Shown here: positions 1 to 60,230 of the stretch, in pieces
Position numbering within the stretch: position 1 is the stretch's first letter
Layout: every line of letters begins with the position of its first letter
Assembly (NCBI RefSeq): GCF_004010195.1
Contig: NC_057758.1
Location: forward strand, 4,312,710-4,376,507
DNA length: 63,798 nucleotides
Direction: 5' to 3'
From: Chiloscyllium plagiosum
Lineage: Eukaryota
Made by a program: the position numbers and the translations under genes
The notes under the pieces: generated by a model
What the model was told of the DNA's origin: nothing
The model's database searches: none
The model's input: only the letters and a program-made list of their open reading frames with translations

Positions 1-142
1 TCCCTCCTCCCGACCTTTTATCTTAGCCTGCCGGACACACTTTCCTCCTTCCTGAAGAAGGGTTTATGCCCGAAATGTCGATTATCCTGTTCCTTGGATG
101 CTGCCTGACCTACTGCGCTTTTCCAGTAACACATTTTCAGCT
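1..142 (+). mobile_element. Penelope-like element 3' tail (pLTR) fragment
   Basis: Matches the tail motif repeated across the window: cctgaagaagggtttatgcccgaaatgtcg...ggatgctgcctgacc...ttttccag. Confidence 0.75.
49..83 (+). ncRNA. Minimal type I hammerhead ribozyme motif (PLE-associated)
   Basis: TTC-CTGAAGA-A-GGGT TTAT GCCC-GAAA-TG-TC^GA: CUGANGA core, 4-bp stem II, GAAA and a GUC cleavage triplet. Confidence 0.6.
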
Positions 143-1285: not shown

Positions 1286-1480
1286 AAAGGTGAGGACTGC
1301 ATATAGTGAAGATCAGAGTCGAGATTGTGTTGCTGCAAAAGCACAGAAGGTCAGGCAACATGCAAGAAGCAAGAGAATTGACGTTCCGGGCATAAGCCCT
1401 TATTGATGTAGGTCCTATGCCTGATTCTTCTGGTCCTCGGTTGCTGCCTGATCGGTTGTGATTTTCCAGTGCCGCACTAC
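1286..1480. mobile_element. Degenerate palindromic PLE-tail element
   Basis: A reverse-oriented tail (aaaagcacagaaggtcaggcaacat...gacgttccgggcataagccc) is followed by a forward tail (ctcggttgctgcctgat...ttttccag). Confidence 0.65.
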
Positions 1481-4199: not shown

Positions 4200-6620
4200 T
4201 GTGGTTGCAGTGCCAAGAGGTTGAGAGTAGAGAGGCCAGAAATATGGTTTCAAGGTAGCAAGAGTTTACTGGTAAATAGGAAGGTCGTCTGAAGAAAGTC
4301 TACATCAATGCCAGGAGCATCCGGAATAAGATGGGTGAACTTGCAGCAGAGGTTGTTACCTGGGACTTCGATGTTATGACCATTTTAGAGACATGGATAG
4401 AGCAGGGACAGTAATGTTTGTTGCAGGATCCGGATTTAGATGTTTCAGAAAGAACAGATAAGATGGTAAAAGATAGGGTGGTGTGGCATTGTTCGTCAAG
4501 AACAGTATTACGGTGACAGACAGGATGCTTGAATACTCGTCTACTGACATAGTATGGGCAGAGGTTCGAAACAGGAAAAGAGACCTCACCCTTTGGGAGT
4601 TTGCTACTGGCCAGGTGTTAGATTTGGTAGTATGTGAACACTTTGGCGATGGTGACCACAATTCGGTTACGTTTCCTTTAGCGATGGAAAGCTTCAGTTG
4701 TATAACACAGGACATCAGTTATTGGTGGGGTAAAGGCAAATATGATGCGATGAAGCAAGTTTAATGATGCGTAAGATGCGGAAGAAAACTGCAGTGATGG
4801 GCGCAATTGAAATGTGGAGCTTATTCAAGGAACAGCGACTGTGTGTCAGGCAGGGAAGAACTGGGCGAACGAGGGAGCTGCGGTTTATTGAAGAGGTTGA
4901 ATCACTTGTCAAGCAAAAGAAGAAGACTTATGTTAGGATGAGACGGGAAGGGTCATTTAAGGTGCTTGAGAGTTACAAGTTAGCCATTGAAGACATAAAG
5001 AGAGAGTTCAGAAGAACCAGGAATGGTCATGAGACATCGCTGGTGGATAGGTCAATGCAAACCCTAAATCATTCTGCCGGTGTATCAGAAATAAAAGGAT
5101 AACTAGAGAAAGATTAGGGCCAATCAATGAAAGTTGTGGGAAGTTGTGTGTGGAGTCCAAGGAAATAGGGAAAGTGCTAAATATATAAGTTTCATCAGTG
5201 TTCACACACGAAAAGGACAATGTTTTCAAGGAGAACGCGGAGATATAGTCTAGTGGACGAGATGGGATTTATGTTCGCAAGGAAGAGGTCTTAGCTATTC
5301 TGGAAAGTCTGAAAATAAATAAGTACCTTCGACCAGATAGGATTTATCCGAGGATTTTCTGGGATGTCGGGGAGGAGATTGCAGAGTTTTTGCTTTGATC
5401 TTTATGTCGCTATTGCCTAGAGGATATTGCCAGAAGACTGGCGAGTAGCAAATGTCGTCCCTTTATTCAAATATGGTAGCGGGTGGAGTGAACCATAGAA
5501 ATTATGGTCCAGTGTGTTTTACTTTCTGTGTGCGTAGTGATGGAAAAAGGTTATAGAAGATAGAACTTATAATCATCTGGAGAGGAATAAATCGATTAGG
5601 GATAGTTAACACGGTTTTTCAAAGCGAGGTCTTGCCTCGTACACTTTATTGATTTCTTTGAGATGGTGAGAAAATGGGTAGATGAGGGTAAAGCGGTCGA
5701 TGTGGTGTATGGGGATTTCAATAATGATGTTATTTCCCCACAATAGGCTGCTGCACAAAATTGAGGTCGATTTAGCTGTTTCGACCAGAAGTTGGCCAAT
5801 AAAAGTAGACAGAGCGTGGTCATTGATGGAAATATTCATCCTGGAGTTCCGTTACTCGTGATGTACTGCAACGATCTGTTTCGGGCAACTGCTGATTATC
5901 ATTTTTATAAATGAGTTGGTGAACACATATGAAAATGGATTAGTGAATTTGCGGATGACACTCATGTCGGTGGTGTTGTGGATAGTACCGAATGAGTTAC
6001 TGGTTACATAGGGGCGTAGATAACCTGCAGAGCTGAGCTAAGTGGTGGCAAAGGGAGTTTAAAGCCGAAAGGTGGGAGTTCAATATCTTTGATAGGGGCA
6101 ACACGAATAAATTCGACTGGGCTAATGGTTAGATTCTTGGTAGTGTAGATGAGCAGAGTGATCTCGGTATCCATGTGGATNNNNNNNNNNNNNNNNNNNN
6201 NNNNNNNNNNNNNNNNNNNNNNNNNNNNNNNNNNNNNAGGATGTTGCCTGGTTTGTAGGGAAAGTACCATGAGGAAAGGCTGACCAGTTTGAGGCTGTTT
6301 TCATTCGAGAGAGGAAGGCTGAGAGGTGAATGAATTGAGACATGTAATGTAATCAAAAGTTTAGATAGGGTTAACAGTGACAGTCATTTTGCTGGAATAC
6401 TGATGGCTAGCACGAAGGAACATCGCTTTAAATTGAGGGATGATAGATGTAGGACAGATGACAGAGGTTGGTTTTTCACTCCTAGAGTAATAAGGGCGTG
6501 GAACGCACTGACTTCAACAGTAGTCGGCTCGCCAACTTTAAGGGCATTTAAATGTTCATTGATAAACATACTGATGAAAATAGAATAGCTTAGGGCAAAT
6601 AGGCTTCAGATTGGTTCCTA
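4200..6620 (+). mobile_element. Degraded CR1 LINE ORF2 (APE endonuclease and RT)
   Basis: YINARSIRNKMGEL, GGVALFVK, EHFGDGDHNSV, KAVDVVYGDF, FADDT and FFTPRVIRAWNAL, with many stops. Confidence 0.9.
6181..6237. other. Assembly gap (57 N)
   Basis: Run of n. Confidence 1.
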
Positions 6621-15960: not shown

Positions 15961-16097
15961 CTTTCTGCATTACAGGAAATCCTGTCGATTATTTTCAAGA
16001 TATTATATGTGGTGTCGGGTGTTTAACTTCTGTGAGGAGCTAGTGAAAAGTATTTTCTAGTTTGTGGGCCACTATGACTCCTCGCTGTCTGTATGTT

Positions 16098-16275
16098 ACT
16101 CTCTCTCTCTCTCTCTTTGTGTGTGTGTGTGTGTGCGTGCTTGTGCGTGTTTGTGAGTGTATGCATTTGCTCATGTGTCTATCCACATGCGCAACACATG
16201 GACGTGTCTGAGCGCGTGTGCCCGGACACACACACACATACACACACTTACACACATACACTAGCACACAGTAGC
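16098..16275. repeat. (CT)n/(TG)n/(CA)n microsatellite
   Basis: Visible directly. Confidence 0.9.
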
Positions 16276-16824
16276 ACACAGACATCAAGAAGTCATAGTT
16301 GCCCACAAACCATTAAACACCATATACCAGCACCTCACAGAAGTTAGAGAGCCAATACCCACATCCAAAAGCATGAATATAATCGACAAGCTTACCTGCA
16401 TGGACTACAGGTAAGCACAACATCGGACAAATATGTCAGAAATTGACCATACATATGCATAAACATCAGCTCACCATCGCCATTCACCACCAGTACTGTC
16501 TCTCATTTCCAACCACACAGACAATGAAGGACACAAACTCAAATGGTACAATGTAACATCCTACTGCAGGCAAAATAGAGCAATCCGTCAGAATACATTG
16601 AAGCCTGCATACCAATGAGCACTGAACCAATAAATGTACTGAACATGACCTAATACGCAGGCTAATCAGATACAGAACTGGAAGTGCCCGAAAATACAGA
16701 CACATAAATATCATTCGAGACAAACCAGAACCTATTCACCGCAGGTGCATTGATCACTTCATCCAATGAGACGTCTGCAGAAAAACACAGAGACTCGGTG
16801 ATAAATGTCTGACCGCACAGTAAC

Positions 16825-20029: not shown

Positions 20030-20482
20030 ATTCCCCCAAACCCTGACCATCCGAAGTCTGGAGGAAGAAGTCCTCATCTTGCAACTTGAGACACTGCAAC
20101 CGCAAGGATTTAATGTGGATTTCACCAGTTTCTTCATTTCTACCTTCCCCCTCCCGCTTTATCCCTTCCAAAGCCTCCAACTTCGCACTCCCATCGAGGT
20201 CTGGCCACATTCTTTCCGTGCTATCCACTCCACTCTCCTCTCCGAGCGATCACCTTTTCCTGACCTTCATCTGCCTGTTCCATTCTCAGCTACCTTTCCC
20301 CCAGCGACACACCCCTCCTATTTATCTCTCTGCCCCCTTGGCCAACAGGCTTCATTCGTCATGAAAGACTTACACACAAAACGTCGATTCCCCGGCTCCT
20401 CGGATGCTATCTGACCCGTTCTGCTTTTCCAGCACCACACTCTCGACCCTGATCTCTAGCATCCCCAGTCCACACTTTCTCC
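20030..20482 (+). mobile_element. Penelope-like element 3' end (GIY-YIG C-terminus and tail)
   Basis: RSLEEEVLILQLETLQPQGFNVDFTSF, then a pyrimidine-rich UTR and the tail aaacgtcgattcc...ggatgctatctgacc...ttttccagcaccacact. Confidence 0.8.
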
Positions 20483-23400
20483 CACAGCTAGTTGTTCGGA
20501 CTGGAGATCTGATCCGGTGGGTGTGGGATGACGGAGCACCTTAAGCAGTGCATTGTTTCATGCGCCTGCTCCCACGATTTAGCTTACTTGTATTTATTCA
20601 TTTTATCTTCAGCAAGACCGTCTCTCATTTCTGAGATGCACTTGCAGCTTGATTTCCTCTTTATTTAAATACTGCTGCTGGGAATAGAGATTGAAGTAAA
20701 TACCCAGTGGATGGGGTTATCAATAACGTTTACGCTCATTTTTGTTTTTATTTCATTGGGTGGACCTGTGTCCCTGTTCGGGCGAGCATTCTTTGCCCAG
20801 CACGAGCTGTCTTCGGTTTTTCTTGGTCCACAGCGTTCCATACATGTCCAGGTTTGGAGCGGTTCATTTCGTTTGAAATATCTTTCATCGACTTCGAGAG
20901 CATCACCGAATTGCCTTTAGTGATGCACAGTAGCTCCTAAAATAAAGGTGCGCCGATTTTTCGAATGCAGCAAGAGATCATAAATGTCCCCCATCTGTTC
21001 AGTTTACAGAGCTACACTAAAGGGAAAGATACAGACAGAGAGAGAGTGATAGAAAGAGATACAGAGGGTGAGACAGCGAGAAATACAATGAGACATGAAC
21101 AATTACAGTGCATGCTTCCAGCATTAACTGAATTTCAAAAGGAATTCGTTGTCTGCACAGAGACTGGGAAAGTGAAATAGAAAATCATATCAGCCTCTGT
21201 TCCATCCACCAAATTTCCCGAGATCTCTACATGGATATTTTTCCATCTGTCGCCATAGTTTAGGCAGTGTAGATTCGCTTTTCCAAATGGCCTCTTCTGT
21301 ACGGCTTTTGTTTTTTCAGTTTGTGAGTCCATCTCGGCCTCTCATCTTTGCTTTTATTTACTTCTGTCCAGAACTTTCTCGGTGTTCTCTCTGTCTTTTT
21401 CTGTCTTCACTCCTTTCTCTCCTTGTTTTTTTCCTCCCTCTCTGTCTCTATTTTTACCACTCAATCCGAAGCTGTGCCTTACTTGATTCCACTTCCTGTC
21501 TCCTGTCTCTCACTCTCTGCTTTTCTTCTGTCTCTTTCTACCACTGTCTCTACATGTGTTACACTGCTCTTTTCTCTTGATCTCATTCCAATTTTTTTCG
21601 TTATTCCCACGGTTTTCTCGTTCTTCCCTCACCATGTCTGCCCTGGCTTATGATATCTGTATGTGTCTATCTCTCACCCTGCATGATTCTTTTGTCCAGA
21701 TTCATAAACAGTGTTGATTATTTGTTGGTTTGTTGAATAAATTCTACCAAATGGCTCGGTTTTCTCGCCGGTCACCGTCCAGCTTTTCCACAGGTTGCAG
21801 GGAATGATCTATCGCAGAGTACGATGCAGCAGTTCAGTGTCTACCTGTAGGGACAATGCAAAAATCTGAACTGTTGAATATTCGAGCATCAGATTAAATC
21901 CTAAATATTGTAAAACAACGTGTGATGGTTTTGTAGATAATGCATTAAGAGAAGCTTCACACAGTCAAACATTGTGTCCGTCTGCCTTGAGAAGCAGCAG
22001 ACTTTTCAAGGGCTGTGATCGATTCTCAGTGAATCTTGCATTTTTTCAGTCCCCCAGTTAACCCGTTCTTGTCCACTAATTTGACTGTATTGCAGATGTG
22101 TTCAGGCATCCTTTATATTTATGAACATCACAGTCTAAGCTGTATGTAAACACAACGAAGAGAGAGGGAGTGGAAAAGAAACTCACAAGTATGGGATCCG
22201 TGTCATAAACGCAGTTCTGAGGATATTAGGACATGGCATATTTCTCCTTGCACAGGAAAAAGATGAGTGGCTCCAAACCCACGATGGTGTTGATCAGAGA
22301 TGATCAAGATAGACAGTTTCTCGATCGTAATTGAACAGAGAATCATGTGATGCGGAGTATTTCATAGACTTCAAGTGACTCGAGAAGCAACATACTCGAG
22401 ATAAAAAATATATTTATTTCTCAAAACACGGAGATGCATTCTGGAATTGCTGCCTGGACGTAAGTCGGACCCAGGTTCCATTTAGATTCTCAAAATGGGC
22501 ACTTAATGGAGATTTGACCAGAATGGATACATAAGGTTCTAGCGAAACCAAAGGGATTTCCATTCAATCATGACGCACCTTGAAAGAGACACTTCAAAAA
22601 GTTTAGATCGAGCGGCATCCTGCTGGACCCCGAGTGTTTTGTGATTTCGAGGACCATACGCCAAACATACAGCAAGCCTATTGACTAAAAGCAGAATGGA
22701 AGAGCAACTGCCCTTCACATTCTGGTGGTATTTGTCTGAGTGTGGCTTCAAGGATCAGGAGGGGAAACGGCGACCATGGGACCTAATTATTACAAATGTA
22801 TTTGTCACAGAGCAATGCAGTGTCACTCTGGAGGTCTGAACATTTCAGCAGAGGTTATCCACAGAATTGTGCCCTCGGCCCAGTTGCATTCATATCCTTC
22901 CCCAATGACCTTAAACGCTGTTTGAAATGTCACACATGTTTAAGACAGGGGTAATCGAGCAAACTCAGAGGAGTAAGAAATTCTCTTGCTCATCGGATTC
23001 TGCCTGAGCTGCTGTTCTGTTCCACCGCAATGCACTTAACTCTTATCTCCAGCATCGGCAGTACATACTTTCGCCTCATCTCACAAATTACAGACCTGCT
23101 CGCTTGGCATCAATAATGTGAAGACTGATGAGAGCCAACATGCACAATAAGTTAAAATATACACTATAAGGCAAGTAAAACAACATGTGACAGTCTACAT
23201 TGTTTTGTCAAGGGCAGGCCATGCCAGACAAAGCTGATTCAGGTATATGATGATGATACAAAGTCAGTATATGAGAGAATACTGAAAACGATGTTTTTGT
23301 TGTCGATTCAGAACGTATTTGCTACCGTGCCACTTAACAAATTGATTGGCAAATTGTAAATGTTTGGGATTGATTAGTCATTGGCAGCATGGATTAGAAA

Positions 23401-23734: not shown

Positions 23735-23955
23735 ATGAAAAAGTGATCCTCTGGAAATGGACAGCGGGTCAGGCCACATCCGAGGAGCAGTAAAGACGTC
23801 GTTTTTGGGCATTCGTCAATCAGCAGTAATTCCTAATGAACGGATAATTCCAAACCGTCAAATCTCCTGCTCCTCTGATGCTGCTTGACCGGCTGTGCTT
23901 TTCGAGAACCACAATCTTCGTCTCTGAACTCCAGCATCTGCAGTTCTCAGTTTCT
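23735..23955. mobile_element. Degenerate palindromic PLE-tail element
   Basis: Inverted arms ggtcaggccacatccgaggagcag and ctcctgctcctctgatgctgcttgacc. Confidence 0.7.
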
Positions 23956-26339: not shown

Positions 26340-27075
26340 TGGAAGGGCACTGAGACATAAATAACAGTATGCAGTTGGCAGTGGGGTAAGTTAATTTGTA
26401 AGATGACAGGTCAATGTAGGTGTGGGGTTATCATGACAGGTCGTTGGATAGGATGCAATGGATCGGTGGGAAGGAAGATGAACAAGTAACAACTGTCAAT
26501 ATAGCAGCGCCAGGTTGTAGCATTAATTTCGGATTCAGGTGAAGGGACAGCAGGTTTGCAAACTATTGAAGTTGATGTTAATTTTGTGTGGCGGTACGGT
26601 CCCAAGGTCGAAGACAAGACGTTCTTCTTCCAGTTGTCTGATGGTTTGTACTTCGTTGGCGTGGAGGTCCAGACTTTGCTTGTCCTTGGAGGAGTGTGAA
26701 TGGGGAGATGACGTGGTTGGCCACTGTGCTGTCGGTTTGTTTGGTGCATGTGTTCCTGGGAGGTTTCCAGAAAATCTCCATCGATTGCTGTCCTGTCCTC
26801 AATGTAGAGGAGACCACATCGAGAGCAACGGGCACAGTAGATGTGGTGGGTAGATGTGCAGAAAAATCTCTGCCAGATGTGAAAATGTATTTTGGGGCCT
26901 TGAACAGAGTTAATGGGGTAAAGGTTAATATCTTTTATGGCGGCAAGTGAAGGTTCCAACTTTGGTAGATGGGGTGCTCGGTCGCAACATGTGATTTGCA
27001 GAGAAACTGATATCTGTAGAACACAGGCACGGGTGCGTAGGGGAGTATACCTCTGGTGATGAGGTATAATATTAG
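26340..27075 (-). mobile_element. Penelope-like element GIY-YIG region
   Basis: QRFFCTSTHHIYCARCSRCGLLYIE in ORF 26411-26959. Confidence 0.85.
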
Positions 27076-33060: not shown

Positions 33061-34473
33061 TGTACTGGATTTAGATTTAGAATTAGAAGTGGAATTTGTT
33101 GTCAAGTGTGCTCAAGCACAGTGATATAGAAGCAAAGTGAAAAGTATATAATGCCACCATTGCTGGCGCCATCTTAGATACAGAACTGTCTAATTGCAAG
33201 ACTTACATTTTATGACTAAAAGTAAGAAAATATAATTAAAAGTTCAACATGAAAGAATTTCTTCCAATAAAATAGCAAAATTAAGAAATAATGTCGAAAG
33301 GTCAAGATTGAATAGCAAGGAGCAGTGATTACATTGTCTCTGATTGGAGGTCAGAAGTGTGGCACTGGAAAATCACAGCATTATTTCCTAATTTTGCCAC
33401 CTATCAGCTGAAGCCTATGTACTGTCTAGATCTTCTTGCGTGAATATGGATTATTCCCGTAACTGAAGCGTCTTGGATTATTGCTGAACATCGTACAATC
33501 ATTGGCGAACGCAAACACTTACGACCCCATGACGTCCACCAAGACAAACACAAGAATATGCAGACTGTCCTGGAGGGGTTGAGCATGTTTCAGCCTGTAC
33601 TCATTGAGATTTTGAAGAATAAGATGGCACTTTATTGAATATGAATGGGTCTGAGGGGCTTGAAAGGGTACAAGTGGAGAGGTTAAGTAGGTTTTGGGCT
33701 GTATTTAATAGCGGTTAGGTGAATGAGATGAAGCCTTGCTTCAAAGATGCAAGATTCTTAGGAGACTTGACAAGGTACATATAGAGAGGTTGTCTTCATT
33801 TGTGGGAGAATGTGATAGATGGTCATCATCACAGAATGAGGACCTGATGGGCTGAAGAGAATCTTCTGTTGCTGTGCTGTGTGAATGTGTGAGTATCTCT
33901 ATGAGAAATGAAAACAGAACAGAAATACTGATAAATGCAAGAGTTTTCATTCACACCAATGCAGAAAGCTGAGGGGTAACTGTTCATTGGCAGCGACACG
34001 ATCGAGTAGAGACTGCATTTCGCTTCAAGCATAGTTTCGTGCTGACCATTTTCCCCTAGTGGGATCTCACAAGTGCTGGAAGCACTTCAAAATGAAGGAA
34101 CACTTCCCAATAGTTTCGAATAATTCGCTTCACAGGCTTTCAGTATGCTGCTTCTGTTATCTTTCCCACAGTATATGGGTGGTCATAGGTCAAGAGGGAG
34201 GAAGATATTTAGAATGACAGAATGTTGTGCCACAGATAGAGGCCTATTGTCCCATTGTGCCTGTATTCCAGTTCGATTCCCTCGAATCATTCTCCTGCCT
34301 TCCCTTCCATTCCTGCCTGCAGCATAATCCTAATAACCGTCAATTCTTCCTCTTGAATGCACCCTTCATTGGTGCACAGAACTTTACCTACGAAACTCTG
34401 TCAGAACGATCTAAGCTACTCGGAGAGGCAGGAGTGTGAGGCAGTCTTCTTCCACTTGACTCTCTTCCACCGC

Positions 34474-34687
34474 TGAAACTTTATTGCTGGAACAGCACAG
34501 CAGGTCAGGCAGCATCTAGGGAACAGAAGATTCGACGTTTCGGGCACACGGCCCTTCTTCAGGAAGAAGAAGGGCGTGTGCCCGAAACGTCGAATCTTCT
34601 GTTCCCTAGATGCTGCCTGACCTGCTGTGCTGTTCCAGCAATAAAGTTTCAGCTTTGATCTCCAGCGTCTGCAGACCTCAGTTTCTC
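34474..34687. mobile_element. Young palindromic PLE-tail insertion with 14-bp TSD
   Basis: Arms spanning 34472-34653 are near-perfect reverse complements. ctctcttccaccgc occurs at 34460-34473 and 34688-34701. Confidence 0.92.
34531..34565 (-). ncRNA. Intact minimal type I hammerhead ribozyme motif
   Basis: Minus strand: TTC CTGAAGA A GGGC CGTGT GCCC GAAA CG TC^GAA. Stem I is TTC/GAA, stem II is GGGC/GCCC, with a palindromic ACGT at stem III. Confidence 0.75.
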
Positions 34688-34769
34688 CTCTCTTCCACCG
34701 CCCCTTATGTGGAGACCAGAGTCCTGCCACGTAGCAATGAAGTATATATCCCCCAGACACAGGCATGGA

Positions 34770-35240
34770 GGCAGACCAGAGGAGATTTACGAGGGCTGAT
34801 CCCAGGTAGAGAGGGACTGTCCACTGAGATGAGGTTGCGTAGAATTCAGTCTGCAGTCATCGGAGTTTAGACTCTTAATGACTCTTAACTGAAACATGCA
34901 TGATTCTTTCTGGATTTGACAATGGAGAAGTGCAGCGGTTATTTCGCCTTTGAGAGAATATTGGTCGGTGTGTGTCCCCTTAGTGTAAGTAAGTCAATCC
35001 TTTAAGAGAGATCTGAAGGAATATCTTCTGTCAGATGTTAGTGTGGTTTTCATTACCACAGACGACTATGCGGCTGGTTCATTCAAAAAGGCGTTCAATT
35101 AGTAAGGGGGGTAAGTGTCTTTGGAAAAAGGAAAGGAGGTAGAGTGAAGTATGATCAGATCAACCACGATCTGTTTCAATGTTGGGGCGGACTCAATCGG
35201 CTCTACGGCCTAATTCTCCCTATGCTTCTTACGGTCTTAT
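34770..35240 (+). mobile_element. Old CR1 3' fragment
   Basis: Degenerate RT tail ending cggcctaattctccctatg. Confidence 0.55.
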
Positions 35241-38845: not shown

Positions 38846-39254
38846 TTGAGTATTCCACCACCCATTCCAAATGCATTGAATATAGTCCGAACCTACCCTA
38901 TTTTCTATCATGCGTCAGTCCTGCCATCCTGGCAATCGGTCTGCCAAATCTTCATCACACCCAATGCATATATAGAGCAAGCTCCTCACATAAAGAGCTC
39001 AAAACTAATTGCAACACATCTGGTGCTACTAAACAGGTTCAGCGCAGAGAGATCACTGCATTATCAGTGGGTCAGTCTGAATTAGTATTTGCTACCAGAT
39101 GGTCAGTCCCGAGATAGGGCACGTTGTCAATTTGTCAGTGCTGCGGAAGCGTCGGATATTCCGTAAAAAAGGAGGCAGTTATGTTAATAGAGTCACGACT
39201 GAGGGAGCCTCACACGTCAATGTGTAAGCACGGTAAGGGTGTGCACTGTTGGGG

Positions 39255-40440
39255 GAAAGGATGTAGATGTCATAACATGGGCATAAGTAAGGCGTTTCAT
39301 CAAGTTCCCCACGTTATACTGATTGAGAATGTGAATTCCCATGGGCACCAGGGTGTTCGAGCGAGATGGAGAGAGATCTGGCTGGGCAACAAGAAACGGA
39401 GAGTAGTAGTGGAAGGGAGTTTCTCAAAATGGAGACCTGTGACCACCGGTGTTCCACAAGGATCCGTGCTGGGATTGCCGTTGTTTGTGATAGATATAAA
39501 TAATTTGGAGGAAAGTACCAGCTGCCCAGTTAACAGGTTTGCAGATGACACTGAGATTGATGGAGTAACAAATAGTGAAGTGAATTGTCAGAGAACAGAG
39601 CAGAACATAGATAGATTCGAGGGTTGGACAAAAAAAGTCAGATGGAGTTCAATCCAAGTAAGTGCGAGGCGATACATTCGAGAAGATTCAATTCAAGAGC
39701 GAACTGTGCAGTGAGTAAAAAAGTCCTGGGGAAAATTGACATATGGAGAAATATGGGTTGTCAGGTCCATTGTTCACTGAAGGTGTCAATGCAGGTCAAT
39801 AAAGTGGTCAAGAAGGCATACAGCATGATTTCCTATATTGGACAAGGTGCTGCATACAAGAGATGGCAGGCCATGTTACAGTTGCATGGGACTTTTGCTC
39901 GGACACATTTGGAATACTGCATACGGTTCTGGTTGCCACATTACCAAAAGGACATGGATATTTTGGAGAGTGTGCAGAGGAGATTCACCAGCATGTTACC
40001 AGGTACATAGGATACTGGTTATAAAGAGAGGTACGTTGGTATTACTTTCATTGCAAAGACGAAGATTGGGAGGGATTCTATGACGTCGACAAAATCAAGA
40101 GTGGATTTGGAAGGTAAGATAGCAAGAAGCACTTTTCCAGAATGCACAGCTCAATTACTCGGGGTCACCAGATCAAACTGAGAGGGGAAGGATTCGGGCA
40201 AATATGCGGGGAAATTTCTTTATGCAGACCGTGGTGGGTGCCTGGAACGCGTTGCCAATGGAGGTTGTACAGGGGGGGAATGATAGCGTCATTTAAGATG
40301 CATGAATGGACAGGGAGCAAAGGGATATGGATCATTAGAAAATAGGTGTCACGTTGAGGTAGTGAATTTGGATCGGCTCAATTTGGAAGGCCGAAGGGAT
40401 TGTTCTTGTGCTGTAAATTTCTTTGTTCTTTGTTCTTTGT
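39255..40440 (+). mobile_element. 5'-truncated CR1 LINE (RT to 3' tail)
   Basis: SKAFHQVPH...GVPQGSVLGLPLFVIDINNL...RFADDT; EFNPSKCE; HLEYCIRFWLPHYQKD; tttgttc tail. Confidence 0.93.
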
Positions 40441-41870: not shown

Positions 41871-44800
41871 TTTCCACTGAAGAAAATAATGGACCAACAT
41901 AATGAAAAGATGGCTTTTCTTCTGCTATCCATTAACCACGTTATGATGACATGCATATAACTTTAATCTAAGGTCACCTTAACCTCTTTCCATACATATA
42001 TGCGTGTGTGTGCGTGTGTGTGCATGCACGACATCTGCAATTGCATTCTTACGAATCACAACGCGTGATTTCTCCATTACAATTCTCTAATGTAAGATTC
42101 AATGTAATTGTTTTATATTCTTGTATTTAAAGCATTCAAAGAATGCAACAGCATTGTGATCTGAGTACACAATCATCTCCACACACTGCTCGTGACGTAA
42201 ACGACAACTTTTGTAAGTCCAGTACAAAACGTAATAGTATTTTTATGACTGTCGAGCATTTCCTCTGGTGGATGTTCCGTTTCATCAATAAGTAACCAAC
42301 AAGCAGTTCATTCCCACCATCATCGCCCTGCAGAAGTATAGATTCAACTCCGAAGTTACGAGCATCTTTTGCAAATTTGAAAGGTTTCAAAAAGTTGGGT
42401 TTAGCTAAAACTGGTGCCGTGGTTAATATGGCTGTTAAATGTTCGAATGCCTCCTGGCATTGCTCTGTCCACTGAAACTTTGTGATTTTCTTCAGCAAAT
42501 TGGTAAATGGTGCCACTAAACTGCTGAAAGTTGGAACAAAGTTCCGATGGAATCAGCTCTGTCCCAAGTATCAAGACAACTTTTACTTTGAGTTTGGTCA
42601 TGGAAAGTCCTTGACGACATTCGCCATTGCTTTCCGTGGGGTCAAGCTTCCATGAGCGACGATATGCACCAAGAAAGTAAACTCTGTTTTCGAGAATTCA
42701 GTTTTGTTTAAGTTTACAACTGGTTTTGCTTGTCACAGGCGTTCAAAGAACTCTGTCAACGGAAAGTGATCTTTCCAGGGCTTACTCATATCAGCCAAAT
42801 GGACTGCACAGTTTGTCAAAACAGGCACTACTCTGTTCATGAGTCTTTGGAATGTGGCAGGTGCGTTCTTCATTCCAGAATGCATCACTTTGAATGGACA
42901 TAGCCCATTCGGGGTTACAAATGCAGAAATGACTTTTGCTGTTTCGATAAAGTTACCTGCCAGGAAACACGCAATCAATCCAAACTGGTGATGTAACTAA
43001 ACTTTTCAACTTTCTCGAAGCAGTCCTGATATCTTGGCATTGGAAATGACTCCGATTTTGCAGCGGAGTTGACCTTCCAATAATCGATACAAAATCAATG
43101 TTTATCGTTCGATTTGTGAACTAATACAATCAGCGAACTCCACTTGACCCGACACAGTTCAAAGACAACCTCGTTGAGCATGGTCTCCACCTTATTTTGG
43201 ACCTGCCTGGCTTTTGAAGGATTAAGCCGATAGGGGTGTTGATTGATCGAAACAGCATCCCCGACGTCTATTTCATGTAGAATCGCATTACTCCTCCCCA
43301 TCTGATTTCTACATCTGTCCTCAGACAGCAGTAGCAAACTTTTCAACCTCCTAACATATCTAGTTTGCCCACTAATTTACTGACATATCCCCCTTCTCAA
43401 GATCTTCTTCATATTTTATACATATTTTAAACACATCAATATCCACAACATCTGGACTTGATTTCTCAATCCGCATGGCCGTGCCTAACGCCTGTTTCTA
43501 CAGTTATTCCTCTCTTCGTGTTATCTGGTGGAGACGAATGCAATCAATGATAACCCACGTGACAGGTTCTTCGAACAAGGGAATTGACAACAAAGGTACT
43601 AGTTTTAAGAACACATTTAGCGTACCTATCATTTGTCATGTATGAAGTGTACGACCAATGTTAACAACATTTCCTTTGCATCCAGGCCATTAAAAATGTT
43701 TTTGTACCTTAGCCTGAGCCTTTTTTACCACGAGATGACCTTCATGACTAAACACTACTGCTTGACTCTCTGCCTGTTCAGGTTTTTCCAACACGTCAAA
43801 CACAGTGTCTGCTAACTGAACCCGAACTGCTTCGTCTTTCTCTTTAGTTTTTGCTTCGTACTGTGACTTATACTATTAGGATATTGTGACTACACAATCT
43901 ATGAAAATACCAGGATATCTTTCTTCTAACTAGCTCCGTTTCTTGGTCTTGTTTGGGCTTTTCCACAACAACGAGTGTCACTCCCACCTCGGATCCTGCT
44001 AAATGATTCCCAAGAACAACCTGGATTCCTGGAACTGACACTCCATCACTCCCAGTGTTACTTTCCCAGTCTTGGGTTGGCATTCCAAACAAATTTACAC
44101 AGGAGAAGGTTACATTTCTGTCCATCTATCACACAAATTAACCTACTCTCGGGTAACAGACCAGAAAGTGCGCATTTCTCTAATCTCTTACTATTCGAGA
44201 CGCATAACATCATGTATCTCTCAACATTTCATATCATTTTCCCCCTGTTCTCTCTGAGTACAGTTTCCCCACAGAGGCGAATTCTAAAAGAGGCCAGGGA
44301 CTAACTCCATACCCAGACCCTGCCTACGCTGTGCATTTATCTGCAGCTCCTCAGCTCTTGGGGTTTCCTTCACTATTTTCCGGAATGCGATTGGCCTCGC
44401 TTCATTCACCACATCTTCTCCCAAAGTGTTTTTTCTCTACCGGCTACGATTGTGACTTTAGCGTCCTCATTAATAGTGGAAATGCCTGCGGCATTTCACT
44501 ACCCTTCTACCCTCTTGGACTTCTTTTGTTCACCCCTGGAAAAAAATCACCAGTGTTCGTTACTTGTGGTTACATAGTGCAGCACCACCCCTTCTCCCAA
44601 CATGTATTCCTCACAGGACGAAGTTCTGGTTCGAAACGTGTCATATGCGCCAACGTGTCTTCATCTGCTAATTCTGCTGCCCTTCCCAATGTCTGAACTT
44701 TCTGTTCCTCCACGTGAATACATGGTGAGGTTTTTCAACTCCTCTACCAGTATAATCTCCCTTAGAACATCATAGGTCTTATGTATCTTTAAAGCCCACA

Positions 44801-48684: not shown

Positions 48685-51600
48685 CCCAAGATTGGGTGAG
48701 ATTCTGAAGACTCCCAGGAGGCGCAGGCCCCAGCGCCTTGAAGGTATTTCACTTCATCTCAAGTGTTGAAATGGCAGCTTTGCGGGAGAGGACTGGGAAT
48801 CTGTAGATCGCCCCAGCGCCGGGCTTCGAAGCGAATGGGGTCGGGCTAAGAATCGTGGCTGAAGTAATCCTATGCAAAGACTCATTCTAAGAGAATAAAT
48901 GAAGCAGGAAACATGTCCAGTGAACTCTCGTGCAGTATTCAGCCGTACACGTCCATGCCAGATCAACGAACCTGCAAGCGGAAGAGAACAGAGACCTTAA
49001 TGCTTTTGTTGCAACGCTGGCAAAAGTGAAGGGAGGCATTCCCAGTGTGAATGGACATGACCAAAATTACTATGTGTAAACAACCACAAGGTGAGACAGT
49101 GTCCCAGTACCTGACGCGCCTCACTGAATTTCATAACGCACATAGTGGACAGAAACCACCCAAAGACATAACGGCAGCAGAAATCACACCATATGCACCA
49201 CACCTGAGGCACAGCTTCATCAATGGAATAAACCGAGACAGTGATAAAGGTAAAAGACACGTGTATTACCTGGGACACGGGAAAGCTGAATTTCTTAGAA
49301 CAACATGCGATACTTGCTGAAAAATCGCTTGGCCAAGAAAAGGGTAAGCGGACACGAAAGAGGGAACAGCAAGCACATAAGGCTCAGCTTAGTATGATAC
49401 AAATGCTTACTCAGCTGTTGGAGGGTGGTGCTGCTGGAGGAGAGGCGGGGTGGAGGTCACGCAAGATGAAATGAAGGGGGCGTGGAAGAGGCGCTGGCAG
49501 AGTCTTTCTTTGCGGAACAATGAAGCAACAGCCCAGGTAAACCGACTAGCCCTGAAAAGCCTAGGAGGGTAGCCTGACGTTTCCCTCAGATAGAAGTCTC
49601 GGACCGAAGATTAAATCGGTCCCTACTGAGTTGTGGGCAAAAGGTAAACATGATGTGGGGCTCATACGAAACTGTGAATCCATAAGGATAACCTCGAAGT
49701 CTGAGTATACTCCGTGCAGAGCACAATGCCCGTTAAAACCCGAGGCCATAGAAGGAATTACTCCAGTCTTTGAATCCCTCATAAAGGCTTGGTAATAATC
49801 CCTTGTGAAAACTCACCGGTGAGAATCCACATTTTTCTGGTCAAAACGCAAACATTCCAGGTGAACCGGAGGAGTGGATGACCGTTCAAGACCTGCAGGC
49901 AGACAATAACGCTGTTGTTCCCAACCCCGATACTATATTAGTTCAAATTCCACCGGACAGTAAATGGTTCTCCGTTGTGGATTTACCAAATGCCTTCTTT
50001 AGTGTATCAGACACACAGATAGTCAATTCCAGTTCGCTTTTTCATTCAAAGGGAAATCATATATTTCACGCGACGTTTTGAAGGTTACTGTGAGTCCCCA
50101 CCATATATAATGAGGCTCGACGCAGGAGTCTGGAGACTCTGGTTTTAACCACGGGGTCAGCGCTTCTGCAGTATGTAACGATTGCTTAATAGCAGCAGCG
50201 ACAGAGGAACAATGTGAGAAGGATACCCTTGAGTTGCTCTGCTATCTCGCGAGGGTAGGGCATAAAGCTAGTCTCGCAAAGCTACAATTTGTGTAACAAC
50301 CTGGTGAAGTTCTTAGGTCACTGAATATCTGAACATGGGAAAGCCATTGGTCAAGACAGAGTTCAAGCAATCCAGCAAATTCCACAGCCTCACACGAAGT
50401 AACAATTGCTACCATGTTTGGGCATGTGCTCCTACTCTAAAATGTTTAACTCACATTACGCAACCATTGTGGCGCCCTGAACTGGCACAGACCACGGCAT
50501 AGGGTTGCAGAACCAAAGTCCGTTGCACTCAACCTGAGAGGCCGAGACTGCCTTTGTTAAATTGAAAATGGCACTCCAAACTACACCTGCACTGGGGATT
50601 CCGAATCCACCAAGCCTTTTGCACAAACGGTAGATGGGAAGTGTGGCTGCATGACATCTGTGCTGTTGCAAGATCATGGGGGAAATTTGAGGCTCGTAGC
50701 ATATTTTTCGGCTGACCTAAACCCCGTAGCGGCAGGATTGCCTAAATGCCTGCGAGCCGTAGCTGTAGCTGAAAAGGCTGTTGCAGCATCAAGGGATATA
50801 GTCAGCTATGCTGGATTAACCCTATTCGTCCGACATGCAATATCCTTACTGCTTTCCGAGCAAAAGACCGCACACATGTTGGCATCACGTTGGCTCTGAT
50901 ACAATACTGTGTTATTGGAGATGCCTGACGTTACAATAAAGCGATGTAATTTCCTTAACCCTGCTAGCCTTCTCCCCAGAGAAGGAGACGGAGATCCACA
51001 TGATTGTGTCGTTGTAACTGATGAAATTTGCAGACCTAGACCAGATTTGCAGGATACAACGCTTCAGAATCTAGATATTGAGTTTTTGGTGGATGGGTCA
51101 TCATTCAGAAGCATGGAAACAGGCCAATATTGTGTTGGGTATGCTGTAGTGACTACCCACGAGGTAGTCAAATCGGGATCACTCCATTCACATATGTCAG
51201 CTTAAGCAGTGGAGCTAATTGCCTTAACAGAGGCCTGTAAATTGGCTGAGGGAAAGACAGTGAATATTTACACCGATAGCAGCTGCGCTTTTGGGGTTGT
51301 ACATGATTTTGGAATCCTGTGGAAACACAGGTGTTTCTTGACCTCCACGGGAAACCCATCACACATCGTGGCCTGATGTCTGACCATTTGGAAGAGGTCC
51401 TATTGCATAAATCAATCGCTGTATGTAAATGTGAAGCCCTCATGAAAAATAACGATTATATTTCTCAAGGCAATGCGACGCCAGTCTCACTAGCAAGGAC
51501 AGTCGCCAAGCAGCCACCAAGTGATGAGCTTGACATGTGTATGACAAAAATATGTACCCCAACAGCAGACGTGCGGGAGTTACAGTCATAGGCTGCGCCG

Positions 51601-52722
51601 GAAGAGAGGTATGAGTGAACAAGGGCAGGGTGCAGCGTGTGGGAATGGGTATGGTGTGGCTCCAATGGTAAACCTTGTCAACCACGATCATTATTCCCAT
51701 TCTATGCCAAACTGACACACGGTACGAACCAGGAGTCAAAAGGGGGGATATATGATAGTATTTCGGCACACTGGTACTCTTACGGATTTATTCATTACTC
51801 CCAGAAATATTGTGAATCATGTGTTATCTTTCCCACTAATAACGTGGCGGGGGGGGGGGGGGGGGGGGGGGGAGAGAGAGAGATGCAGATGAGTCAGGCA
51901 GCACACCCTTAACCCCAAAGACTCTTTGAAAATTTGCAGATGTATTTTATTGAACTAACACCCAGCAACGGGAAGAATTATTGCCAGGTAATAGTTGATA
52001 TGTTTTCTAAATGGGTTGAAGCGTTCCCCAAGTCTAAACAGGATGCCAGCGCATCGCTAACTGAAATAATTCAGAATTGGGGCATCCCTGAAAGGCTTAG
52101 TAGTGACATTGGAACATCATTTGTCAATAATGCCCTACAGCAGGTCAGGGATTACTTGAGAATAAATGTGAGACAACAATGTGCCTACCACCCAGCGAGA
52201 GATACGGCAGTGGAAAGAGAAAATGCTACCCAAAATATAAATTGACCAAATGTTGTAAGGAACAAGGGGTGACATGAACAAAGGCACCTTCGATTGTTCT
52301 ATTGTATATGAGATCTAGGAGGAGAGGAAGAGCCAATCTTAGCCCGTTTGAGATTTTGTTCGCTTGTCCACCCAATGCAGGAATTGTCCCAAGACCTAAG
52401 GTAAGACAGATAACAGACTACTGTGAGGATGAGATATTCTGTTACTTCATTAAACTCTCGAAACTTTTGTCTCACATAGAGAATCAAAAGAAAGCAGCAC
52501 CATCCCAACCAGCAGAAGGGAAACTGCGTGATCTATAACTTTGACACTGGATAGTGGTGAAAGAGTTCAGGATGAGAGTCTGGAAGCCGATGAGGAGGCT
52601 GGGACCGTTCCAAGTCCTCCTTACCATACAGACAGGTGTTAAGATCGCAAATTTATAGCTATCTGGCTCTGTATTGTTTTTAATCTGGCTCTGTACTTTT
52701 TATCCTTGTCATAAAATGATTT

Positions 52723-58489: not shown

Positions 58490-58690
58490 TAGAAATGTCA
58501 ATTGGAATGTGTCATCTTCAAATGATGTTTAATTTTCAGGTTTTGTTTGCTTTCTCAACTTTACCTACCGACAATAGCGATCCTGTCTCAAGCTAAGTGT
58601 GGTTTCGTCAAATATGTGAACAATATAACTGGTGGACAGGACAATGGTAGGACCTTTGCTCACTATCTTTGACATCTATTTTTATTAAAA
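58490..58690 (+). pseudogene. Inverted partial duplicate of the GPCR intron end and exon 2 start
   Basis: TIAILSQAKCGFVKYV / LVDRTMVGPLLTIFDI matches AIAILSRDKCGLSKCV-LVAMAVADLLVNILDL. The upstream intron sequence also matches, but the acceptor AG is lost. Confidence 0.75.
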
Positions 58691-58707: not shown

Positions 58708-59600
58708 TCAAACAATTTTAATATGTTTAATTGGATGATTCCAAATAGTCTTCATATGATCCCTGAACTTGTTCAACGTCACAGTGTAAATACAAACATT
58801 TGTGCAGCAACTCGTGAGCTGGCCGATGTATCCAATTTCTTGTACAAAATAATGGAGGAAAATTCCTGTCTTCACCATCCGCCAAACTCTTCTTGATATT
58901 ACAAAGAGCGTAATGATGGCCCATGACAGGACGAAGTTGGTCGAAATGAGAAAAAGTAAAATCATGGATTTTCTTCGACTTTTAATTTTTGCATCTGAGA
59001 AATTCTTCCCCTTTCTCAGGGTCTAGAATCTCATGCGGGCACTGTTGGCCATTAGGATTTGTCTGACACATAAAGCATTAAACATCACAGTCAAAAGAAT
59101 TGCCAAACAAGGAGTAAGAAGATAATGAATGATTTCGACTGTTGCCCAGAACTGAGATAATGCAATATTCCATCTCAGCTGACAAAACCAAGGAATATTC
59201 TGTAGCAAATACTGACCAGTTAACATAACATACCAAAACATATTCTTTGAAAGGCTCAGTATTGTCACTGTTCCCAATATCACAAATGCAATTTTCACAT
59301 TGCAATATTTGCGTTTCAGTTTCTGGTGGCTGATGGCCACAAATCTATCAATCGTGAAAGCAACAACATACCACACAGAACAGTCTGTGACTGCATTCAC
59401 AAGAATGGCATGGATATTGCATACAGGAATGGATTTCACGAACTGAAAATTTCTCTTATAAACAATTGTAATGTGCCTCAGTATCAGGTCAAGGATATTG
59501 ACCAGGAGATCCGCCACTGCCATGGCCACCAGATAAAGGGACACACATTTGGATAAACCACATTTATCTCGAGAGAGGATTGCAATCGCCAATACGTTAA
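58708..59600 (-). pseudogene. GPR139/142-like orphan class A GPCR, exon 2, with one in-frame TAG at 59023-59025
   Basis: Acceptor tttctcacag|TTAAC; YLVAMAVADLL (TM2), FTIDRFVAI (TM3), PWFC, RRKSMILL (TM6), SCCTNVCIY (TM7). ORFs 59023-59613 and 58708-58965 are in the same frame. Confidence 0.92.
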
Positions 59601-60064
59601 CTGTGAGAAACAAAACAAAACCTGAAGTTACAAATCAATTGAAGGTCAAGCATTCCATTTCACAGCAGAAAAGGAGCACAGTGATTACTATGAGGGAGCC
59701 ATTTAATAAAGAAATGAGGATTGACTGTTTCTCTCAGAGTGTTGTATGTCTTTGAAATACTTCATATGGAGCATTCTGAGCGTGGAAATACTTGTGTATA
59801 TTTAAGTCATAGTGGGATCAATATTTTAACCCTTTTTCTTTTTTCAAAGATGTTCTCCTGGAGAACAGCCATTCTGAATTCAAAGTGCGACTCGGCAAGG
59901 TCAATGCAGGGAGGATATTCCAGATGACCGCTGGAATTCAGAACGGGAAATACGGGATGTAGGTGAGGGACGTTTGTTGGTTGTGTCACAGTCATTAAAT
60001 GGTGTCATTAAATGTGAACTCTATTTTTTCTCTCTTTCTTGCTTGCCACAGATTCTGCCAGGCG

Positions 60065-60230
60065 AAAGTGAGGCCTACAGATGCTGGAGATCACAATCCA
60101 GATTATAGCGGTGCTGGAAATTCACAGCTAGTCAGGCAACATCCGAGCAGGAAAATCGACGTTTCGGACAAAAGCCTTTCATCGGATTCTGCCATACCTG
60201 CTGAACATCTCGAAGGTTTCTCCTAACGGT
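60065..60230 (-). mobile_element. PLE tail fragment with a mutated hammerhead motif
   Basis: Minus strand reads ccgatgaaaggcttttgtccgaaacgtcgatt. Confidence 0.7.

Follow-up and report, generated by a model that had tools for sequence, protein, structure and literature searches.

Penelope-like elements (PLEs) that encode an endonuclease (EN+ PLEs) leave insertions with a recognizable architecture. In the published layout, a 5'-truncated copy adjoins a second, inverted 5'-truncated copy, and a tail of 30–40 bp is found at one end (PMC8557442); the same layout is summarised in PMC8969392. One described example has an inverted pseudo-LTR (pLTR), a 31-bp tail and a 9-bp target-site duplication (TSD) (PMC3846280). 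The tail length has been equated with the distance between two start sites of reverse transcription, and the purified PLE protein was reported to cut and extend both target strands (PMC11167929). For the Poseidon element of Anolis, reverse transcription is described as starting 111–118 nt into the ORF whose beginning is the hammerhead.

The hammerhead ribozymes of metazoan PLEs belong to the minimal type I (min-HHR), for which a single motif showed no activity and dimers showed weak activity; truncated PLEs with solo motifs, and pairs of motifs 100–700 bp apart on opposite strands, have already been reported (Cervera and De la Pena, 2014, PMC4209133). In vitro, the PLE hammerhead was described as protein-assisted and dispensable for insertion (PMC11167929). 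The non-LTR retrozymes, reported in one chondrichthyan, are non-coding, PLE pLTR-derived units with a type I hammerhead (bioRxiv 10.64898/2026.07.22.740005). Our literature search, which covered mainly papers outside subscription, returned no work devoted to shark PLE mini-palindromes or to PLE twin priming.

In the window (the whole stretch of DNA analysed, 63,798 nt), positions 34474–34687 are an ordinary remnant of a PLE and consist of two head-to-head copies of the element end. The following features were delineated at this locus:

34460..34473, unstranded: left copy of the 14-bp TSD; its last 2 bases also match the end of the short arm
34474..34565, minus strand: short inverted arm, a tailless, 5'-truncated PLE end whose start is 3 nt upstream of the hammerhead core
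34531..34565, minus strand: minimal type I hammerhead motif (definition of PMC4209133)
34561..34565, unstranded: unpaired 5-nt centre of the hairpin, bases that belong to the short arm only
34566..34651, plus strand: duplicated part of the long forward arm, starting two bases inside the core and lacking a functional core
34652..34687, plus strand: PLE tail of 34–36 nt, confined to the forward arm (2-nt ambiguity, start at 34652/4)
34688..34701, unstranded: right copy of the 14-bp TSD

The insert is 214 bp long and lies between two copies of a direct repeat that are identical at 14/14 bp. Exact repeats of at least 14 bp within 300 bp of each other occur twice in the whole window, and the other one is a CT-rich simple repeat. 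The arms align with 86/86 identical bases and a single 1-nt gap, located in the loop of helix II. The hairpin at 34472–34653, whose outermost two pairs involve TSD bases, has a fold energy of -186 kcal/mol (z = -24), and 0/200 shuffled sequences were equally stable. Both the TSD-bounded palindrome of ~215 bp and the near-perfect 182-bp hairpin proposed in the initial annotation are confirmed. There is no microhomology at the arm-arm junction (34565/34566); both arm ends adjoin the TSD with 1–2 nt of microhomology.

The locus resembles the insertion units of EN+ PLEs of the Penelope/Poseidon, Neptune and Nematis groups, as these are described in PMC3846280, PMC8557442 and PMC11167929, in its head-to-head inverted 5'-truncated copy, in the tail on one arm, in a TSD of variable length (14 bp here, 10 bp at a solo copy near 60.1 kb) and in the position of the hammerhead ~90–125 nt from the ends. 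That the copies are 5'-truncated is seen from reads of the family, which show the natural upstream continuation. The most diagnostic PLE feature is the extension of the long arm by 34–36 nt past the end of the short arm. The initial annotation, accurate overall, had left this single-copy extension (34652/4–34687) unnamed and had called the hammerhead motif complete. In contrast to the published units, the insert is only 214 bp long and has no coding sequence between its arms, and its target is a 14-bp, C/T-rich site; the TSD is longer than the 8–10-bp examples given in PMC3846280, and the C/T-rich target DNA differs from the AT-rich preference of the one PLE tested in vitro (PMC11167929). The published PLE anatomy, the tail and the TSD support the earlier reading of a non-coding, PLE-derived, TSD-bounded insertion. 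The insertion architecture itself has already been published, and the locus is a further example of a known PLE layout.

The hammerhead motif on the minus arm consists of the core (34562–34556), an unpaired A (34555), a 4-bp helix II (34554–34551/34545–34542), GAAAC-GUC with the cut site at 34534/34533, a 3-bp helix I and a 4-nt palindrome for helix III, which requires a dimer. It thus contains the elements of the min-HHR consensus: the CUGANGA and GAAA core, the NUH cut site, the palindromic 15.2–16.2, the unpaired base between positions 9 and 10.1 and the G10.1–C11.1 pair. The core, the unpaired base before helix II, the G–C closing pair and the palindromic stub that replaces helix III are shared with the metazoan PLE min-HHRs of PMC4209133. 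The differences from that set are the 3-bp helix I (4–5 bp in the Schistosoma families described there; helix II has 4 bp here) and the truncation of the partner motif, and no shark is named in the accessible text of that paper. The loop of helix II has 5 nt at this locus and 4 nt in about 99% of family reads. In family reads that run past 34565, the next base would form a fourth helix-I pair, so that the copy at 34531..34565 has lost one helix-I pair. The plus arm lacks the first two bases of the core, as had been noted earlier (truncated inside the core). No hammerhead was matched in Rfam at the gathering threshold or at E up to 10; the latter search gave seven weak matches to miRNA or lncRNA families, all under their gathering scores.

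The earlier claim of an intact ribozyme holds for the minus-strand core, which is an intact minimal type I core; it does not extend to helix I, cut to 3 bp, or to the predicted accessibility of the motif. When the full minus-strand RNA was constrained to the hammerhead fold, the computed penalty was 49.5 kcal/mol. In computed growing transcripts the hairpin already covered the core as the core emerged, and an isolated double-hammerhead dimer reached -11.9 kcal/mol against -19.8 kcal/mol for an alternative cofold; all these energies are nearest-neighbour estimates that leave out tertiary contacts and protein. According to this folding model, the hammerhead of 34474–34687 is probably sequestered inside the hairpin and inactive, because the antisense arm would be transcribed first on either strand and would pair with the emerging motif.

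Seven positions of the locus differ from the majority of reads; four of these belong to the duplicated part, where each arm has the departure at the mirrored position. The letter in loop II that the arms have in common is carried by <1% of reads. Under independent decay at that level, zero mismatches between the arms would be expected with P of about 3e-4; hence, both arms share one source. The identity of the arms may partly reflect arm-to-arm conversion; the older units of the window are without such homogenisation. The tail letter at 34681 occurs in no more than 1.8% of family reads and looks locus-specific; two contigs have their start exactly 30 bases ahead of it.

To place the insert among its relatives, we used a profile built from 8 window copies and accepted matches with E up to 0.05. 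It matched 20 places that make up 2.6% of the window length, the 8 seeds matching by construction. Three independent head-to-head units were recognized (near 1.3 kb, near 23.8 kb and at 34474–34687), each with a long arm and a short arm (3/3); a fourth head-to-head pair, near 2.1 kb, repeats part of the 1.3-kb unit as a tandem duplicate. The relatives and endonuclease-like pieces needed below are the following:

1287..1479, unstranded: older head-to-head unit with a long and a short arm, which differ at 17/59 aligned bases
20040..20483, plus strand: longer relative (71% identity over 104 nt); a peptide similar to a PLE endonuclease end precedes its module
23750..23954, unstranded: older head-to-head unit with a long and a short arm, which differ at 19/72 aligned bases
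26559..26900, minus strand: decayed frame with cysteines between GIY-like and YIG-like triplets, a motif recognized by eye and without database confirmation
60051..60194, minus strand: solo copy of the long arm that begins roughly at the core and has a 10-bp TSD

Cysteines between GIY and YIG have been described as a mark of PLE endonucleases (PMC8557442), and the end of the 26559..26900 frame matches the 20.0-kb peptide at 48% over 29 aa (E 8e-6, tblastn within the window). The assignment of the terminal module to a GIY-YIG element is therefore based on a visible motif and this within-window link, without a database match. A Pfam scan of the 119 stop-to-stop frames of at least 88 aa in the window gave 7 frames with a match, none of them to GIY-YIG; the short endonuclease-like pieces had no match in Pfam, a word-indexed protein search, the ESM Atlas or the PDB. 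A full phmmer search with the endonuclease remnant produced 2 matches, which we rejected as repetitive unrelated proteins. Within the window, no reverse transcriptase could be tied to the family of the module. Exact-pattern scans for the motif revealed no relatives in metagenome or viral contigs (0 loci in each). A scan for bacterial promoters, of no relevance to a vertebrate, was empty. Around the decayed frame, the region 26400–26950 (minus strand) is a putative endonuclease end of PLE type in a decayed state; directly downstream of it, no hammerhead module was detected. The tandem duplication at 1376–2721 has a length of 673 bp and 98% identity and copies part of the older 1.3-kb palindrome.

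In our view, the insert is very probably the dead product of a single retrotransposition event by an endonuclease-bearing PLE; the enzymology and the succession of steps, like the inactivity of the ribozyme, are our inference. The GIY-YIG endonuclease of the PLE would nick the two target strands 14 bp apart, giving rise to the TSD. Reverse transcription would then begin at two internal start sites on the element RNA, ~35 nt apart, which would place the short arm at one target end and the tail-bearing long arm at the other. Copying would end after ~90–125 nt, close to where the hammerhead has its front edge. The ends would become linked in head-to-head orientation; this could happen directly, or the short cDNA could first fold back and anneal to the tail-bearing cDNA. 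The hammerhead would be a passenger from the pLTR of the parent element. Since each arm has bases that the other lacks (the 5 nt of the centre and the 34–36 nt of the tail), simple fold-back of one target-primed cDNA is excluded.

A possible, albeit less favoured, route of the same PLE origin replaces the priming at two nicks by self-priming, an idea put forward for antisense strands by Arkhipova et al. (2013, PMC3846280). A long antisense strand (RNA or cDNA) would fold back, copy itself including the tail, and lose ~35 nt at the other end before integration. The perfect identity of the arms would follow directly; the polarity is as predicted, with the unpaired centre placed on the strand that opens with the antisense arm and finishes in the tail, and a 3-bp micro-palindrome is present at the centre, palindromes at inverted junctions having been noted in PMC3846280. 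However, priming on the micro-palindrome gives one GAA triplet too few, so that a 3-nt slip must be added, and both arm ends abut the TSD with their short microhomology, as target priming expects. In vitro, moreover, both strands were extended from a sense template (PMC11167929). The single locus cannot decide between direct joining of cDNAs, fold-back of the short cDNA and antisense self-priming with a 35-nt trim.

Extending the reading of a single PLE retrotransposition event, we would tentatively, and with more doubt than conviction, regard the mini-palindromes as single-event records of how inverted PLE ends form. One protein dimer would prime both target nicks at two reverse transcription starts of one short RNA, whose 5' end would coincide with an initiator-like site located 4 nt ahead of the core of the hammerhead. 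The short cDNA would fold back on a micro-palindrome that helix I forms together with the first bases of the core.

The position of the inversion raises the question of whether the hammerhead, by cleavage or folding, sets where copying stops and inverts; we consider this unlikely. Since the inversion is found at the motif's front edge, ~30 nt upstream of the cut site, it was not produced by cleavage; a template that had been cleaved would also be devoid of the core. Aligned arm starts in the window are suggestive in that 6/12 are within about -5 to +7 of the first base of the core, but a further 3/12 are near +23 to +29 and 3/12 run further upstream, and the ends of old copies are imprecise. 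An arm start at the cut site itself was also considered and dropped, as it agrees cleanly with just one copy in the window (23.0 kb). Among the raw reads, 5285, or 83% of the depth at 34550, continue past 34565 into shared upstream sequence, which also speaks against such a role. The consensus of these reads is similar to what lies upstream in the copy at window positions 1–50, with an agreement of 0.77 that is comparable, among the rows listed, to the values of reads that simply continue in a diverged subfamily (0.72–0.75). The joints listed centre near 34516/34609, ~45 nt downstream of the core, and are of a class favoured by 150-nt reads. Hammerhead mutants are reported to have left insertion in vitro unchanged (PMC11167929). 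The read data give no support for the inversion position as a family rule. The initial annotation had placed the inversion at the ribozyme, and this stands for the present locus and roughly for the two older units, with the specification that the front edge and not the cut site is concerned and that the read data do not extend the position to the family as a whole.

It is very unlikely that the palindrome is a non-autonomous mobile unit, MITE-like or retrozyme-like, that is copied as a whole with the hammerhead processing its RNA. Its compactness, inverted arms and bounding TSD are compatible with such a unit, as are the occurrence of the module in on the order of 1e4 similar copies and the rare loop variant present in both arms. 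On the other hand, the three units of the window differ in their centre and in the side that bears the tail, and the joints listed (15 of 89 joints, 24 of 22918 pieces) vary in their centre and in the letters between the arms. The hammerhead motif is also sequestered according to the computed folds. Retrozymes are tandem head-to-tail units with at least two complete motifs, as required in PMC4209133 and bioRxiv 10.64898/2026.07.22.740005, whereas 34474–34687 is a head-to-head arrangement with one complete core and contains no tandem units each with a complete hammerhead.

Of 24 listed runs, four were aligned to 34000–35200, providing contigs of the samples X4, X5 and X6 and raw reads of X10 (about 4% of the run). 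X1–X3 were left out as possibly being the source sample; X4 comes from the same study as that sample, and X5 and X6 from a second study. The right junction is bridged by X4 and X5 contigs with 37 bases of the tail. At the left junction, X4 and X6 contigs run 24 and 27 exact bases from the flank into the inverted arm, against a bridging rule of 31 letters. Three other samples (X4, X5 and X6) thus carry one or both junctions in contigs. The depth of the X4 junction contigs (16.6 and 16.2, flank 15.9) is as expected without an empty allele, and no joint that skips the insert is found among the 15 of 89 joints listed, so that the TSD is deduced from its two flanking copies. At 35141, the letter in the X4 and X5 contigs differs from that of the window. 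The raw reads of X10 scarcely touch the flanks and provide family-level information only, not a test of the locus. The summed read depth on the most conserved part of the arms is ~23,000, corresponding to similar copies on the order of 1e4 or more; for an assumed genome of 3–5 Gb the estimate is ~36,000–60,000, and it halves if reads with two places are counted twice.

A fold-back artefact of assembly, to which the unspanned centre of the insert (no listed contig or other piece covers it) would be congenial, is extremely improbable in view of the exact TSD, the asymmetric tail, the 1-nt difference between the arms, the fact that independent samples show the arms in opposite orientation at the two junctions, and the raw reads of another individual, which contain head-to-head joints of this family (48 reads with 36 starts at one joint). 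The artefact caveat raised in the initial annotation is in this way settled for the ends of the insert by the junctions in other samples, and persists for its centre.

One or two post-insertion changes in 235 bp correspond to 0.4–0.9% divergence, or ~1e5 to 4e7 generations, at a rate of 7e-10 per generation published for the epaulette shark (PMC10587355), which may be a species other than the host. Given this wide span and the junctions in the other samples, "young" can mean only younger than the neighbouring units, and it is in this sense that the earlier description of the insertion as recent holds: it is younger than its window neighbours, and its junctions are found in three other samples. 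As this locus shows, the identity of the arms says little about age in slow-mutating sharks.

Several other features of the window were recorded. An exon-like frame of a rhodopsin-family receptor (58790–59590, minus strand; Pfam 7tm_1, E 8e-12) has an in-frame TGA after ~200 codons and probably represents either a pseudogene or a stop allele. The opposite strand immediately downstream has an inverted, 73%-identical copy of the start of the receptor exon (58496–58673 versus 59488–59664). An old inverted repeat of 426 bp (15973–16398, 67% complementary) surrounds a CT/GT microsatellite and is unrelated to the hammerhead module. Other retroelement remnants detected with Pfam are RVT_1, two RNase H-like domains and one integrase core (39118–39711, 42139–42552, 50561–50896 and 51913–52242), and there is an assembly gap of 57 N at 6181–6237.

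In conclusion, the single locus matters little, being one of tens of thousands of PLE end fragments with a probably inert ribozyme. The bases specific to each arm (5 nt in the centre and 34–36 nt in the tail), together with the shared rare variant, constrain models of formation, and clean examples as a class bear on how PLEs make inverted ends and tails. If the mini-palindromes are indeed records of single events, the ~1e4 or more copies in the shark genome could, through their centres, loop polarity and arm variants, separate twin priming from antisense self-priming.
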